From: Escherichia phage DE3
Sequence record: EU078592
Direction: 5' to 3' (one strand)
Length of the DNA stretch: 42,925 nt
The notes under the pieces were generated by a model. It worked only from the letters and a program-made list of their open reading frames with translations. It was not told where the DNA came from and did no database searches. Numbering within the stretch: position 1 is the stretch's first letter; each line of letters opens with the position of its first letter. The position numbers and the translations under genes are program-made. Below are positions 10,262-15,467 of the stretch, in pieces.

Positions 10262-10630
10262 TCAGGCGGCCTTGATAGTCATATCATCTGAATCAAATAT
10301 TCCTGATGTATCGATATCGGTAATTCTTATTCCTTCGCTACCATCCATTGGAGGCCATCCTTCCTGACCATTTCCATCATTCCAGTCGAACTCACACACA
10401 ACACCATATGCATTTAAGTCGCTTGAAATTGCTATAAGCAGAGCATGTTGCGCCAGCATGATTAATACAGCATTTAATACAGAGCCGTGTTTATTGAGTC
10501 GGTATTCAGAGTCTGACCAGAAATTATTAATCTGGTGAAGTTTTTCCTCTGTCATTACGTCATGGTCGATTTCAATTTCTATTGATGCTTTCCAGTCGTA
10601 ATCAATGATGTATTTTTTGATGTTTGACAT
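10262..10630 (-). CDS. ea10: Ea10 (122 aa)
   Basis: 122-aa ORF at expected position downstream of cIII. Confidence 0.85.
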   Translation of the reverse strand: MSNIKKYIIDYDWKASIEIEIDHDVMTEEKLHQINNFWSDSEYRLNKHGSVLNAVLIMLAQHALLIAISSDLNAYGVVCEFDWNDGNGQEGWPPMDGSEGIRITDIDTSGIFDSDDMTIKAA

Positions 10631-10812
10631 CTGTTCATATCCTCACAGATAAAAAATCGCCCTCACACTGGAGGGCAAAGAAGATTTCCAATAATCAGAA
10701 CAAGTCGGCTCCTGTTTAGTTACGAGCGACATTGCTCCGTGTATTCACTCGTTGGAATGAATACACAGTGCAGTGTTTATTCTGTTATTTATGCCAAAAA
10801 TAAAGGCCACTA

Positions 10813-11013
10813 TCAGGCAGCTTTGTTGTTCTGTTTACCAAGTTCTCTGGCAATCATTGCCGTCGTTCGTATTGCCCATTTATCGACATATTTCCCATCT
10901 TCCATTACAGGAAACATTTCTTCAGGCTTAACCATGCATTCCGATTGCAGCTTGCATCCATTGCATCGCTTGAATTGTCCACACCATTGATTTTTATCAA
11001 TAGTCGTAGTCAT
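10813..11013 (-). CDS. ral: Ral restriction-alleviation protein (66 aa)
   Basis: MTTTIDKNQWCGQFKRCNGCKLQSECMVKPEEMFPVMEDGKYVDKWAIRTTAMIARELGKQNNKAA. Confidence 0.88.
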   Translation of the reverse strand: MTTTIDKNQWCGQFKRCNGCKLQSECMVKPEEMFPVMEDGKYVDKWAIRTTAMIARELGKQNNKAA

Positions 11014-11091
11014 ACGGATAGTCCTGGTATTGTTCCATCACATCCTGAGGATGCTCTTCGAACTCTTCAAATTCTTCTTCCATATATCACC

Positions 11092-11391
11092 TCAAATAAG
11101 TGGTTTGCTGCCTAATTTAATTTTCTGGCGACCAACACAAGTCACACCCATTTCACTGCGTGGCTTGCTGTAGTAAATACGGTTCTGTTTACGCTCGACT
11201 TCTTCTGCCTTCTTGCAGCGAAGGCTTCCGAGTGATGCTGCTTTATCTGCTCTGACGCAACCAGAGAGCTTTAGCGCAATTTTTCGCGCCAGTGCTTCAT
11301 TACTGCGTCGCTCGGCAATAAGTTCTGCTCTGCGAGCTTTGTAGCGGCTTTTTGCCGTACCTTTGGATTCTTTCCAGACAATGGTTACCAT
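11092..11391 (-). CDS. N: N antiterminator, heterologous (phage 21-like), 99 aa with N-terminal arginine-rich motif
   Basis: MVTIVWKESKGTAKSRYKARRAELIAERRSN...; GGAG 7 nt upstream of this ATG; not the lambda N sequence. Confidence 0.85.
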   Translation of the reverse strand: MVTIVWKESKGTAKSRYKARRAELIAERRSNEALARKIALKLSGCVRADKAASLGSLRCKKAEEVERKQNRIYYSKPRSEMGVTCVGRQKIKLGSKPLI

Positions 11392-11501
11392 GATGGTCTC
11401 CTTTAAGTGGCTTTGGCGCATGACGCGTCGAGGTGCTTATCTTCTCGATCGCTGTCTTGTAGCTGCAATTCGCGCCATCCCCAAAACCACTCAAGTTCTG
11501 G

Positions 11502-11541
11502 TCTCAACGGTTAGGTTGAGAGTCCGTCGATGTTAAAGAGC
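11502..11541 (-). promoter_or_regulatory. nutL: nutL: boxA (GCTCTTTAACA, 11531-11541) and boxB hairpin (UCUCAAC-CUAACC-GUUGAGA, 11502-11521)
   Basis: Perfect 7-bp stem with 6-nt loop on the leftward transcript, boxA-like element 10 nt 5' of it. Confidence 0.75.
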
Positions 11542-11583
11542 CTGCCAATCTGTTCCGTTTGGCTTCCAGCGTCCTGCTGATGG

Positions 11584-11680
11584 CTTAAATTTAAGACTTC
11601 TTAATTTATTGGTCAAGTGCATTTTTGAAGAAAACTTAATTTTATGGGCGTGAATTTAGTTTGTCTTTGATTTTTAACGG
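11584..11680 (-). promoter_or_regulatory. OL/pL region of the heterologous immunity module; candidate pL -35 TTGACC (11611-11616) and -10 TAAATT (11588-11593) with operator-like palindrome between
   Basis: TTAAGACTTCTTAA at 11591-11604 and CTTAAATTTAAG at 11584-11595, read on minus strand. Confidence 0.55.
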
Positions 11681-11682
11681 GA

Positions 11683-11703
11683 AATAAAAAAGGGGCGAAA
11701 GCC
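11683..11703 (-). terminator. Intrinsic terminator immediately downstream of cI (minus strand)
   Basis: GGGGC-TTTC-GCCCC stem-loop followed by TTTTTTATTT on the minus strand. Confidence 0.7.
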
Positions 11704-11705
11704 CC

Positions 11706-12356
11706 TTAAGGAAGGTTTGCTAGCTTGGCATCAACGACAACGCCAATGATTTTACAGTTCCCATTGATTTCAATCATTGGGTATTGTGGATTGAGTGGTT
11801 TCAGGAATTTTCTACCGGCATCAATAACTAACTTTTTGAATGTCGCCTCGTTTTCTCCTTCAAGTTTGGCGACTACCAGCTTTCCATTACGTGGTTCGAC
11901 TTCTGGGTCGACGAGAATAATCATCCCCTCAGGAATACTCAGTCCTGCCGGGGCAGTCATTGAATCGCCTTTAACGTCGAGCCAAAAAGAGTCTTCAGAA
12001 CAATCTACCGTTGTGTCGTACCAGTTATCTATTGCACGCCTATGATATGGCTCTACAGCTTCCATCCAACATCCTGCGCTTACCCAACTAATTAGAGGAT
12101 ACGAACCTCTTGGATCATGCCTGCTGTGATAGGCAATGTTTGAAAGACTATCCTCTCCTTTCAACAGGTAATCAGGGGAGCACTGCAAAGCCTTGGCTAA
12201 GGCCAATAGGTTTTCGCCATTGGGCTCAGTTTCAGATCGCTCCCATTGGGAAATAGCAACATTAGACACGCCAACCATCTTGCCAAGGGCAGCCTGCCTA
12301 ATCTTGAGTTCTTTTCTGCGAGCGCGAATACGCTCACCCATCAGTTGTGTATTCAT
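11706..12356 (-). CDS. cI: CI repressor, heterologous (phage 21-like), 216 aa, HTH N-domain plus LexA/S24-like C-domain
   Basis: MNTQLMGERIRARRKELKIRQAALGKMVGVSNVAISQWERSETEPNGENLLALAKAL...GDSMTAPAG...; not lambda or 434 cI. Confidence 0.9.
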   Translation of the reverse strand: MNTQLMGERIRARRKELKIRQAALGKMVGVSNVAISQWERSETEPNGENLLALAKALQCSPDYLLKGEDSLSNIAYHSRHDPRGSYPLISWVSAGCWMEAVEPYHRRAIDNWYDTTVDCSEDSFWLDVKGDSMTAPAGLSIPEGMIILVDPEVEPRNGKLVVAKLEGENEATFKKLVIDAGRKFLKPLNPQYPMIEINGNCKIIGVVVDAKLANLP

Positions 12357-12436
12357 AGTTAAGACATCTTAAATAAACTTGACTTAAGATTCCTTTGGTG
12401 GATAATTTAAGTGTTCTTTAATTTCGGAGCGAGTCT
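12357..12436. promoter_or_regulatory. OR/pRM/pR region; pR -35 TTGACT (12379-12384), -10 GATAAT (12401-12406); operator-like palindrome TTAAGACATCTTAA (12359-12372)
   Basis: Divergent cI and cro ORFs separated by 80 bp; consensus-like sigma70 hexamers with 16-bp spacer. Confidence 0.7.
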
Positions 12437-12622
12437 ATGTACAAAAAAGATGTTATTGACCACTTCGGAACCCAGCGTGCTGTTGCTAAAGCACTAGGCA
12501 TTAGCGATGCAGCAGTCTCTCAGTGGAAAGAAGTTATCCCAGAGAAAGACGCCTATCGATTGGAAATCGTTACAGCTGGCGCCCTGAAGTATCAAGAAAG
12601 TGCTTACCGCCAAGCGGCATAA
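12437..12622 (+). CDS. cro: Cro, heterologous (phage 21-like), 61 aa
   Basis: MYKKDVIDHFGTQRAVAKALGISDAAVSQWKEVIPEKDAYRLEIVTAGALKYQESAYRQAA; HTH, not lambda Cro. Confidence 0.88.
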   Translation: MYKKDVIDHFGTQRAVAKALGISDAAVSQWKEVIPEKDAYRLEIVTAGALKYQESAYRQAA

Positions 12623-12628
12623 GCAAAT

Positions 12629-12669
12629 TGCTCTTTAACAGTTCTGGCCTTTCACCTCTAACCGGGTGA
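12629..12669 (+). promoter_or_regulatory. nutR: nutR: boxA (TGCTCTTTAACA, 12629-12640) and boxB hairpin (UCACCU-CUAACC-GGGUGA, 12652-12669)
   Basis: Same CUAACC loop as the nutL hairpin; stem differs. Confidence 0.7.
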
Positions 12670-12737
12670 GCAAACATCAGCGGCAAATCCATTGGGTGTG
12701 CCGCTATAACTCAATATCAATATAGGTAAATTAACAA

Positions 12738-13037
12738 ATGGCACAAGCAAGCTACAGCAAGCCAACACAGCGAGAAATTGATCGCGCTGAAACTGATTTA
12801 CTCATCAACCTGTCAACGCTTACCCAGCGCGGTCTGGCAAAGATGATTGGCTGTCATGAATCGAAGATAAGCAGAACGGACTGGAGATTTATTGCTTCGG
12901 TCTTGTGTGCTTTCGGAATGGCATCAGACATCAGTCCGATTAGCAGGGCTTTTAAGTATGCGCTTGATGGACTCACAAAGAAAAAACGCCCGGTGTGCAA
13001 GACCGAGCGTTCTGAACAAATCCAGATGGAGTTCTGA
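12738..13037 (+). CDS. cII: CII transcriptional activator, hybrid (heterologous N-terminal part, lambda-identical C-terminus)
   Basis: MAQASYSKPTQREIDRAETDLLINL...KKKRPVCKTERSEQIQMEF; only the C-terminal TERSEQIQMEF matches lambda CII as I recall it. Confidence 0.85.
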   Translation: MAQASYSKPTQREIDRAETDLLINLSTLTQRGLAKMIGCHESKISRTDWRFIASVLCAFGMASDISPISRAFKYALDGLTKKKRPVCKTERSEQIQMEF

Positions 13038-13059
13038 GGTCATTACTGGATCTATCAAC
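12983..13059 (-). ncRNA. oop: OOP antisense RNA (approximate; position inferred from lambda map)
   Basis: A-run at 12980-12985 (U-run on minus strand) preceded by GC-rich imperfect hairpin inside the cII 3' end. Confidence 0.4.
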
Positions 13060-13069
13060 AGGAGTCATT

Positions 13070-13969
13070 ATGACAAATACAGCAAAAATACTCAACTTCG
13101 GCAGAGGTAACTTTGCCGGACAGGAGCGTAATGTGGCAGATCTCGATGATGGTTACGCCAGACTATCAAATATGCTGCTTGAGGCTTATTCGGGCGCAGA
13201 TCTGACCAAGCGACAGTTTAAAGTGCTGCTTGCCATTCTGCGTAAAACCTATGGGTGGAATAAACCAATGGACAGAATCACCGATTCTCAACTTAGCGAG
13301 ATTACAAAGTTACCTGTCAAACGGTGCAATGAAGCCAAGTTAGAACTCGTCAGAATGAATATTATCAAGCAGCAAGGCGGCATGTTTGGACCAAATAAAA
13401 ACATCTCAGAATGGTGTATCCCTCAAAACGAGGGAAAATCCCCTAAAACGAGGGATAAAACATCCCTCAAATTGGGGGATTGCTATCCCTCAAAACAGGG
13501 GGACACAAAAGACACTATTACAAAAGAAAAAAGAAAAGATTATTCGTCAGAGAATTCTGGCGAATCCTCTGACCAGCCAGAAAACGACCTTTCTGTGGTG
13601 AAACCGGATGCTGCAATTCAGAGCGGCAGCAAGTGGGGGACAGCAGAAGACCTGACCGCCGCAGAGTGGATGTTTGACATGGTGAAGACTATCGCACCAT
13701 CAGCCAGAAAACCGAATTTTGCTGGGTGGGCTAACGATATCCGCCTGATGCGTGAACGTGACGGACGTAACCACCGCGACATGTGTGTGCTGTTCCGCTG
13801 GGCATGCCAGGACAACTTCTGGTCCGGTAACGTGCTGAGCCCGGCCAAACTCCGCGATAAGTGGACCCAACTCGAAATCAACCGTAACAAGCAACAGGCA
13901 GGCGTGACAGCCAGCAAACCAAAACTCGACCTGACAAACACAGACTGGATTTACGGGGTGGATCTATGA
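13070..13969 (+). CDS. O: Replication initiator O (299 aa)
   Basis: MTNTAKILNFGRGNFAGQERNVADLDDGYARLSNMLLEAYSGADLTKRQFKVLLAILRKTYGW... Confidence 0.96.
   Translation: MTNTAKILNFGRGNFAGQERNVADLDDGYARLSNMLLEAYSGADLTKRQFKVLLAILRKTYGWNKPMDRITDSQLSEITKLPVKRCNEAKLELVRMNIIKQQGGMFGPNKNISEWCIPQNEGKSPKTRDKTSLKLGDCYPSKQGDTKDTITKEKRKDYSSENSGESSDQPENDLSVVKPDAAIQSGSKWGTAEDLTAAEWMFDMVKTIAPSARKPNFAGWANDIRLMRERDGRNHRDMCVLFRWACQDNFWSGNVLSPAKLRDKWTQLEINRNKQQAGVTASKPKLDLTNTDWIYGVDL
13417..13545. repeat. ori: ori-lambda: four ~19-bp iterons (ATCCCTCAAAACGAGGGA-like) plus adjacent A/T-rich unwinding region, inside O
   Basis: Four direct repeats 13418-13504 followed by ACAAAAGACACTATTACAAAAGAAAAAAGAAAAGATTATT. 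Confidence 0.9.
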
Positions 13970-14667
13970 AAAACATCGCCGCACAGATGGTTAACTTTGA
14001 CCGTGAGCAGATGCGTCGGATCGCCAACAACATGCCGGAACAGTACGACGAAAAGCCGCAGGTACAGCAGGTAGCGCAGATCATCAACGGTGTGTTCAGC
14101 CAGTTACTGGCAACTTTCCCGGCGAGCCTGGCTAACCGTGACCAGAACGAAGTGAACGAAATCCGTCGCCAGTGGGTTCTGGCTTTTCGGGAAAACGGGA
14201 TCACCACGATGGAACAGGTTAACGCAGGAATGCGCGTAGCCCGTCGGCAGAATCGACCATTTCTGCCATCACCCGGGCAGTTTGTTGCATGGTGCCGGGA
14301 AGAAGCATCCGTTACCGCCGGACTGCCAAACGTCAGCGAGCTGGTTGATATGGTTTACGAGTATTGCCGGAAGCGAGGCCTGTATCCGGATGCGGAGTCT
14401 TATCCGTGGAAATCAAACGCGCACTACTGGCTGGTTACCAACCTGTATCAGAACATGCGGGCCAATGCGCTTACTGATGCGGAATTACGCCGTAAGGCCG
14501 CAGATGAGCTTGTCCATATGACTGCGAGAATTAACCGTGGTGAGGCGATCCCTGAACCAGTAAAACAACTTCCTGTCATGGGCGGTAGACCTCTAAATCG
14601 TGCACAGGCTCTGGCGAAGATCGCAGAAATCAAAGCTAAGTTCGGACTGAAAGGAGCAAGTGTATGA
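13966..14667 (+). CDS. P: Replication protein P (helicase loader), 233 aa
   Basis: [71 protein letters not shown]... Confidence 0.96.
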
Positions 14668-15467
14668 CGGGCAAAGAGGCAATTATTCATTACCTGGGGA
14701 CGCATAATAGCTTCTGTGCGCCGGACGTTGCCGCGCTAACAGGCGCAACAGTAACCAGCATAAATCAGGCCGCGGCTAAAATGGCACGGGCAGGTCTTCT
14801 GGTTATCGAAGGTAAGGTCTGGCGAACGGTGTATTACCGGTTTGCTACCAGGGAAGAACGGGAAGGAAAGATGAGCACGAACCTGATGAACAAACTGGAT
14901 ACGATTGGATTCGACAACAAAAAAGACCTGCTTATCTCGGTGGGCGATTTGGTTGATCGTGGTGCAGAGAACGTTGAATGCCTGGAATTAATCACATTCC
15001 CCTGGTTCAGAGCTGTACGTGGAAACCATGAGCAAATGATGATTGATGGCTTATCAGAGCGTGGAAACGTTAATCACTGGCTGCTTAATGGCGGTGGCTG
15101 GTTCTTTAATCTCGATTACGACAAAGAAATTCTGGCTAAAGCTCTTGCCCATAAAGCAGATGAACTTCCGTTAATCATCGAACTGGTGAGCAAAGATAAA
15201 AAATATGTTATCTGCCACGCCGATTATCCCTTTGACGAATACGAGTTTGGAAAGCCAGTTGATCATCAGCAGGTAATCTGGAACCGCGAACGAATCAGCA
15301 ACTCACAAAACGGGATCGTGAAAGAAATCAAAGGCGCGGACACGTTCATCTTTGGTCATACGCCAGCAGTGAAACCACTCAAGTTTGCCAACCAAATGTA
15401 TATCGATACCGGCGCAGTGTTCTGCGGAAACCTAACATTGATTCAGGTACAGGGAGAAGGCGCATGA
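14664..15467 (+). CDS. In-frame ren'-'ninI fusion created by nin5-type deletion (Ren residues 1-74 joined to lambda Ser/Thr phosphatase from ~residue 26)
   Basis: [30 protein letters not shown]...EGKMSTNL|[26 protein letters not shown]...GNHE...; junction ~14877-14886. Confidence 0.85.

Follow-up and report, generated by a model that had tools for sequence, protein, structure and literature searches.

The closest described system to the locus considered here is the immunity region of coliphage 21 (imm21), an element that was sequenced in 1980 (Poteete, Ptashne, Ballivet and Eisen, J Mol Biol 137:81, as cited in a passage of PMC1151598). The phage 21 genome has been announced (PMC9119081), and its GenBank record, OL657228, carries protein_bind/operator features for OL1, OL2, OL3 and three OR sites and also marks the pL start, nutL and boxA. 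The best studied counterpart is phage P22, whose operator consensus, ATTTAAGATATCTTAAAT, consists of TTAAG half-sites around a 4-bp centre without contacts (PMC5175364, PMC4267663). The contacted bases are nearly identical in the six natural P22 sites, and the repressor distinguishes the sites via “indirect readout” of the uncontacted centre; OL1, with a Kd of ~5 nM, is the tightest natural P22 operator (PMC4267663). Purified P22 Cro has likewise been characterised as a protein that binds operators (Poteete, Hehir and Sauer 1986, as cited in a passage of PMC6649833). For lambdoid repressors, cooperative binding to OR1 and OR2 represses pR and supports pRM, occupancy of OR3 lowers cI synthesis with the aid of a long-range interaction between OL and OR, and RecA-stimulated autocleavage inactivates the repressor (PMC5977221).

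The stretch of DNA that we analysed (the window) is 42,925 nucleotides long (Escherichia phage DE3, sequence record EU078592). Over its first 9 kb it matches the E. coli BL21(DE3) chromosome at 100% identity; this part contains lacI (332-1423) as well as an 883-aa ORF (2026-4677) that is annotated in that chromosome as DNA-directed RNA polymerase. Compared with phage lambda by blastn, the window is a mosaic: lambda DNA at 1-254, a foreign insert at 255-4696, lambda at 4697-11108, non-lambda DNA at 11109-12971, lambda at 12972-14885 and then a deletion junction, with lambda again from 14876. The flanks of the 11109-12971 segment are lambda at 99.6-99.95% identity, with no match for the segment itself in the same comparison, and the DNA outside the immunity region is phage lambda at 99.6-100% identity. 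Positions 11000-13100 show 100% identity with lambda imm21 as well as with Escherichia phage 21 (OL657228). The imm21 heterology block (~11109-12971), set inside an otherwise lambda prophage, comprises N21, pL/OL, cI21, OR/pR, cro21 and most of cII21. It is from the lambda/foreign mosaic, together with the identity to the BL21(DE3) chromosome, that the window is identified, by its sequence, as the lambda DE3 prophage of E. coli BL21(DE3), and that the operators are placed wholly within the imm21 block. DE3 is a lambda imm21 nin5 derivative with a T7 gene 1 cassette in int, and the sequence is consistent with this. The OL-cI-OR segment was found in 489 of 5426 complete E. coli genomes.

The TTAAGA..TCTTAA palindromes to which a first-pass annotation of the window drew attention are almost certainly the left and right operators (OL and OR) of imm21, the immunity region of coliphage 21, carried here in DE3; these operators were already known. 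Their unit is an 18-bp, twofold-symmetric sequence, ANTNAAG-N4-CTTNANT, in which the outermost base of the half-site (position 1, with its mirror at position 18) is A in nine of ten half-sites. The first-pass annotation had taken a 14-mer as the unit; the 14-mer does lie at the operators, and it is the 18-bp sequence that forms the functional unit.

On the left, OL1 (ATTTAAGACTTCTTAATT, 11589-11606) matches the consensus with 0 mismatches, has the highest score with a half-site weight matrix (22.8 bits) and is identical, without a single difference, to P22 OL1. It spans the spacer and -10 of pL, which the consensus scan places on the minus strand at 11588..11616 (-35 TTGACC at 11616..11611, a 17-bp spacer and -10 TAAATT at 11593..11588); the pL transcription start in the phage 21 record maps to window position 11581. 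The palindrome TTAAGACTTCTTAA, previously proposed at 11591-11604 in the pL region, is present there and lies in this same spacer and -10. OL2 (TTTGAAGAAAACTTAATT, 11624-11641; 1 mismatch, 16.9 bits) lies directly upstream of the pL -35. It is a fifth clear site, which the first-pass annotation had overlooked. Another candidate for OL2 chosen by eye, GGTCAAGTGCATTTTTGA (11611-11628), 22-24 bp from OL1, ranked only 909th with the weight matrix and was rejected in favour of 11624-11641, which is conserved and annotated. The first gene of the pL operon under OL control is N21 (11092..11391, minus strand), an antiterminator CDS in OL657228 with a weak Pfam N_peptide match.

On the right, OR3 (AGTTAAGACATCTTAAAT, 12357-12374; 0 mismatches, 21.7 bits) adjoins the cI ATG, OR2 (ACTTAAGATTCCTTTGGT, 12382-12399; 1 mismatch, 16.6 bits) overlaps the pR -35, and OR1 (ATTTAAGTGTTCTTTAAT, 12405-12422; 0 mismatches, 22.3 bits), whose sequence equals that of P22 at the same position, covers the last bases of the pR -10 and reaches into the start region. 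The pR promoter was found by consensus scan on the plus strand at 12379..12406, with -35 TTGACT (12379-12384), a 16-bp spacer and -10 GATAAT (12401-12406), for 10/12 matches. The shorter copies reported earlier around pR hold up, and they do overlap its -35 and -10: TTAAGACATCTTAA is at 12359-12372 and CTTAAGATTCC at 12383-12393, while TTAAGTGTTCTTTA is present at 12407-12420, one base away from the 12408-12421 first given. pRM was not called by the consensus promoter scan, and because of this its overlap with OR3 is something that we infer: the sole -10-like hexamer upstream of cI, TAAGAT (12371..12366, minus strand), lies inside OR3 and would belong to pRM, so that pRM would overlap OR3. Centre-to-centre distances are 23 bp for OR1-OR2, 25 bp for OR2-OR3 and 35 bp for OL1-OL2, and OL is separated from OR by 768-816 bp.

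All of these sites are operators in OL657228, whose features map to window positions 11589-11606 (OL1), 11624-11641 (OL2), 11653-11670 (OL3), 12357-12374, 12382-12400 and 12405-12422. The labels of that record are wrong on the right-hand side, the OR3 site being called OR2 and the OR1 site OR3. Full-text literature searches for the natural operator strings returned only a synthetic consensus operator, and a search for DE3 and imm21 together gave no match.

The two proteins that would read these sites are both P22-like. The cI21 repressor (11706..12356, minus strand, from the ORF list) is a 216-aa protein with HTH_3 (Pfam, 6e-17) and Peptidase_S24 (PF00717, 1e-30, residues 87-208) domains, and the same 216-aa CDS is annotated in RefSeq BL21(DE3). 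An intrinsic terminator on the minus strand (AAGGGGCTTTCGCCCCTT followed by a T run, 11690..11707) lies directly after its stop codon, according to both a terminator scan and the OL657228 annotation. Starting at Met1, residues 1-76 align with the N-terminal domain of P22 c2 (1ADR, E 2e-39) and also match 2R1J and 3JXB, which are repressor-operator cocrystals. Only two of the first 68 residues differ from P22 c2, and the helix-turn-helix, GVSNVAISQWER, is identical, including the recognition helix SNVAISQWER. The linker contains Ala94-Gly95, the predicted Peptidase_S24 autocleavage site, and with an S24 domain and this Ala-Gly pair cI21 has the predicted makeup of a LexA/cI-type SOS-inducible repressor. 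Directly downstream of OR, cro21 (12437..12622, plus strand) encodes a 61-aa protein of the P22_Cro family (PF14549, 6e-28) that is identical to P22 Cro (1RZS) at 60 of 61 positions (E 1e-35). The earlier proposal that cI and cro recognise the TTAAGA half-site thus agrees with the P22-like nature of both proteins, with the published P22 consensus and with the OL657228 operators at the same positions. Operator function as a whole is supported, binding by homology and the literature and agreement with footprints through the GenBank annotation and secondary citations.

The sites also travel with the DNA-binding domain. Loci encoding relatives of the repressor were drawn from bacterial genomes, E. 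coli genomes and phage records, and twelve of them share the SNVAISQWER helix: DE3/21, P22, CUS-3, JEP4, IME10, three E. coli prophages, Shimwellia, Escherichia sp. E1V33 and two Edwardsiella prophages. In all twelve, measured from the cI start, operator sites are found at +1 (OR3), +26 (OR2) and +49/50; OL has two, OL2 among them, at ~117 and ~82 bp past the cI stop. Identity falls to only 69% in the Edwardsiella repressors, and the inter-site and flanking DNA has diverged; the operators there nonetheless hold A1, T3, A5, A6 and G7 and the mirror positions C12, T13, T14, A16 and T18, with 4-bp centres that vary. Among loci with a related C-terminal domain and a different N-terminal domain, none of 15 has such a site adjacent to cI. 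The presence of the sites in 12/12 loci with the recognition helix versus 0/15 with another N-terminal domain means that the motif follows the DNA-binding domain, as would be expected of its operator.

The intergenic regions of the window are AT-rich, and so is the motif, which moreover overlaps promoter hexamers; the palindromes could then be chance products of AT-rich promoter DNA and not protein-binding sites at all. The counts argue strongly against this. The search that the first-pass annotation had called for, with the 14-mer TTAAGANNTCTTAA at ≤2 mismatches across the window, gave five matches against a mean of 0.94 (~5x) in 100 dinucleotide-preserving shuffles, none of which reached five, and four of the five lie in OL or OR. 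With the published 18-bp consensus, ANTNAAGNNNNCTTNANT, at ≤1 mismatch, there were again five matches (0.94 expected), and these are exactly OL1, OL2, OR3, OR2 and OR1, all within the 364 bp of intergenic DNA that flank cI (naive probability of this placement, ~4e-11). Counting both strands, the 42.9 kb contain 11 copies of the hexamer TTAAGA, of which five are concentrated in the ~240 bp of OL/OR against an expectation of 0.06 (~80-fold enrichment). The half-site weight matrix gives the five operators 16.6-22.8 bits and the top site elsewhere 11.5, a ranking that is circular because the matrix was trained on those five sites, so that the consensus search is the only independent test. The best non-operator match, ATTTAAGTCGCTTGAAAT (10412-10429, inside ea10), consists of a single good half-site and was judged to be chance. 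Since the sites are in addition kept with the recognition helix in diverged prophages, absent when the N-terminal domain differs and identical to the annotated phage 21 operators, an origin by chance is vanishingly unlikely, and we regard it as effectively refuted. Granted that these are operators, one might still ask whether CTTAAATTTAAG (11584-11595), which was listed earlier as overlapping in OL, is a separate operator or the site of another factor. It is indeed a perfect 12-bp palindrome that overlaps OL1, its left arm CTTAAAT resembles a right-hand operator half-site, and its GGCTTAAATTTAAG context is kept in E. coli relatives. The partner half-site that this arm would require is, however, absent at the proper distance, where 11573-11579 reads CCTGCTG. 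Nor is the palindrome conserved along with the operators: it is broken both in P22, which reads CTAAAATTTAAG although its operator specificity is shared, and in the Edwardsiella prophages, which read GTAAACTTTAAG. The pL -10 (TAAATT, minus strand) and the adjoining outer OL1 arm account for the whole of CTTAAATTTAAG; it is no independent element, and a function of its own is extremely unlikely.

A further question is which protein uses the operators. The repressor alone might do so, with Cro21 reading a different or smaller set of sequences: there is no Cro-DNA cocrystal for P22 Cro, which is monomeric in solution (PMC6649833), and nothing in the sequence alone separates Cro sites from cI sites. 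Against this, cro lies directly downstream of OR in the canonical arrangement, Cro21 is all but identical to P22 Cro, the operator-binding protein characterised by Poteete, Hehir and Sauer (cited above), an SQW motif is common to the recognition helices of cI21 and Cro21, and OR contains no other repeated motif. We consider it very unlikely that Cro21 has sites of its own, and the five palindromes are best read as operators common to cI21 and Cro21.

The analysis itself shows which sequences are present, where they lie and how enriched they are, which proteins are encoded, and that the sites co-occur with the recognition helix in relatives. On this basis a scheme of the switch may be proposed in which binding, order of occupancy, cooperativity, activation of pRM and looping between OL and OR would be as described in the literature or in the homologous P22 and lambda systems. 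In a cI21 dimer, as in P22 c2, each helix-turn-helix would enter the major groove at one TTAAG half-site, leaving the central 4 bp untouched; these could tune affinity via DNA shape and solvation, as has been shown for P22 c2. Repressor on OR1 and OR2 would cover the -10 and -35 of pR, so that cro and the rightward lytic genes are off, and OL1, across the spacer and -10 of pL, together with OL2, upstream of its -35, would block N and the leftward operon. OR3, adjoining the cI start codon and probably overlapping the cI maintenance promoter, would serve for negative autoregulation by the repressor and as a target of Cro. Cro21 on the same sites would reduce both cI synthesis and early transcription, and on induction RecA-stimulated self-cleavage of the S24 domain would lift repression.

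Clear sites number three in OR and two in OL, where a possible third is degenerate and has a 5-bp centre. This putative, weak OL3, AATTTAG-TTTGT-CTTTGAT (11653-11671; 11653-11670 in OL657228), has a degenerate left half, and its halves are 5 bp apart and not 4. As the annotated 18-mer (11653-11670) it ranks only 849th in the window, and as a 19-mer it ranks 4th; its register is ambiguous, since a one-base shift or a 5-bp centre fits better than the 18-mer. Most E. coli relatives have ACTTAAG-N5-CTTTGAT at this place, and Edwardsiella has nothing there. It is conceivable, although we think it rather unlikely, that OL3 of the imm21/P22 family is a conserved, non-canonical operator with a 5-bp centre, on which the dimer would sit at a mis-spaced site. 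If this were true, OL3 could be “deliberately” weak, being filled only via cooperativity or OL-OR looping, and it would be further weakened in phage 21 and DE3 by the degenerate left half. At the least, the degenerate site (~11653-11671) may contribute weak binding.

As a discovery the locus has little weight, having been sequenced in 1980 and already annotated in GenBank. It does show that a real repressor-operator system can be recovered by reading a sequence without other help, and the corresponding P22 operators serve as a structural model of both direct and indirect readout of DNA. The analysis also fixes the exact operator coordinates for the DE3 prophage, by which the T7 RNA polymerase cassette of BL21(DE3) is maintained in the lysogenic state, and points out minor mistakes in the annotation of the reference record for phage 21.

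Set beside the known systems, OL and OR of DE3 are the same DNA as those of coliphage 21 (OL657228; Poteete et al., 1980), with 100% identity over the immunity region and coinciding operator coordinates. There is no sequence difference between the two; what differs is the setting, for the block sits here in the engineered lambda DE3 of BL21(DE3) and not in phage 21. With P22 immC (c2 and Cro), the locus has in common the 18-bp consensus, the three-site OR, the spacing of the sites and identical OL1 and OR1. Across the whole of OR, P22 and DE3 are separated by four substitutions, one in the OR3 centre, two in OR2 (TTAAG against TAAAG, and TTTGGT against TTTAGT) and one in the OR2-OR1 spacer; the outer arm of OL2 and OL3 are also different in P22, and to the left of pL the DNA is unrelated, with N21 in DE3 and gene 24 in P22.

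More distant is phage 434, whose sites are 14 bp long with ACAA/TTGT arms and whose specificity differs from that of cI21. The N-terminal domain of the 434 repressor is a detectable homologue. As in P22, the operators of 434 are symmetric and their uncontacted central bases set affinity by indirect readout (PMC3317979). The lambda switch shares the layout, with divergent cI and cro, a tripartite OR over pR and pRM, OL over pL, a helix-turn-helix repressor with an S24 domain and RecA-dependent induction (for the general mechanism, PMC5977221). It differs in its Cro, which has a different fold (PMC6649833), and in the presence of rexA and rexB between cI and OL, which puts OL and OR ~2.3 kb apart according to a passage of PMC2685085, compared with 0.77-0.82 kb here. 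Its sites are 17 bp long and of another sequence, and because the operator sequences differ, lambda and DE3/21 are heteroimmune.

The sequence of the window, which starts at position 748396 of NC_012971.2, is that of the DE3 lambda prophage in E. coli BL21(DE3). The lambda int region is interrupted by a 4.4-kb insert (255-4696), within which lie lacI (332-1423) and, at 2026-4677, a gene for a DNA-directed RNA polymerase of 883 aa. At approximately 14876-14885, two lambda segments are joined whose lambda prophage-order coordinates are 12778 and 15575, and the junction lacks roughly 2.8 kb of ren-nin DNA, a loss that is consistent with the nin5 deletion.

Comparison with the GenBank record of phage 21 (OL657228), identical to the window over the imm21 block, brought out two points of annotation. 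That record gives the three OR sites (34906-34971 there, 12357-12422 in the window) the labels OR2, OR2, and OR3 and assigns the middle site a length of 19 bp; the usual convention places OR1 beside cro, and under it the sites are OR3, OR2, and OR1, respectively. The cI CDS of the same record (34255-34827; its equivalent lies in 11706-12356 of the window) begins at an internal Met, giving a 190-aa version that would leave the DNA-binding domain without its first helices. Both the P22 c2 structures, which align from residue 1, and the RefSeq annotation of BL21(DE3) support the 216-aa ORF starting at 12356 over this shorter version.

At the OL3 position (11653-11671, with equivalents at L002 and L035-L040 among the loci of repressor relatives gathered for comparison), phage 21, P22, and the E. 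coli relatives (ACTTAAG-N5-CTTTGAT in these last) all have 5 bp between the two half-sites where the other operators have 4; the Edwardsiella prophages among the loci compared have no site at this position. A second leftward promoter-like element, AAGACA-17-TAAAAT, identified by consensus match only, lies on the minus strand at 11639-11667, upstream of pL, where it overlaps both OL2 and OL3. Outside OL and OR, the top operator-like sequence was ATTTAAGTCGCTTGAAAT (10412-10429, inside ea10; 11.5 bits with the half-site weight matrix trained on the five OL/OR sites), and this match is probably due to chance since it has only one perfect half-site.

Of 5426 complete E. coli genomes, 489 contain the imm21/P22-type OL-cI-OR segment (11560-12440), 210 of them with matches at ≥99% identity and 249 at 80-90%. 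Natural prophages, and not the DE3 strains alone, commonly carry this type of immunity. A repressor 99-100% identical to that of imm21, with the same operators, also occurred on short contigs of two metagenome bins labelled Oxalobacter sp. (L003) and Segatella copri (L006), both non-enterobacterial taxa; these contigs probably represent E. coli prophage DNA assigned to the wrong bin.

Among more distant relatives, the prophages of Edwardsiella piscicida and E. anguillarum (L007 and L008) share the operator layout and the recognition helix (SNVAISQWER, common to cI21 and the P22 c2 repressor), although their repressor has an identity of only 69%. In many further prophages of enterobacteria (L009-L024), a similar S24 C-terminal domain is combined with an unrelated N-terminal DNA-binding domain, and the operator motif is absent, an arrangement that illustrates domain shuffling of immunity specificity.
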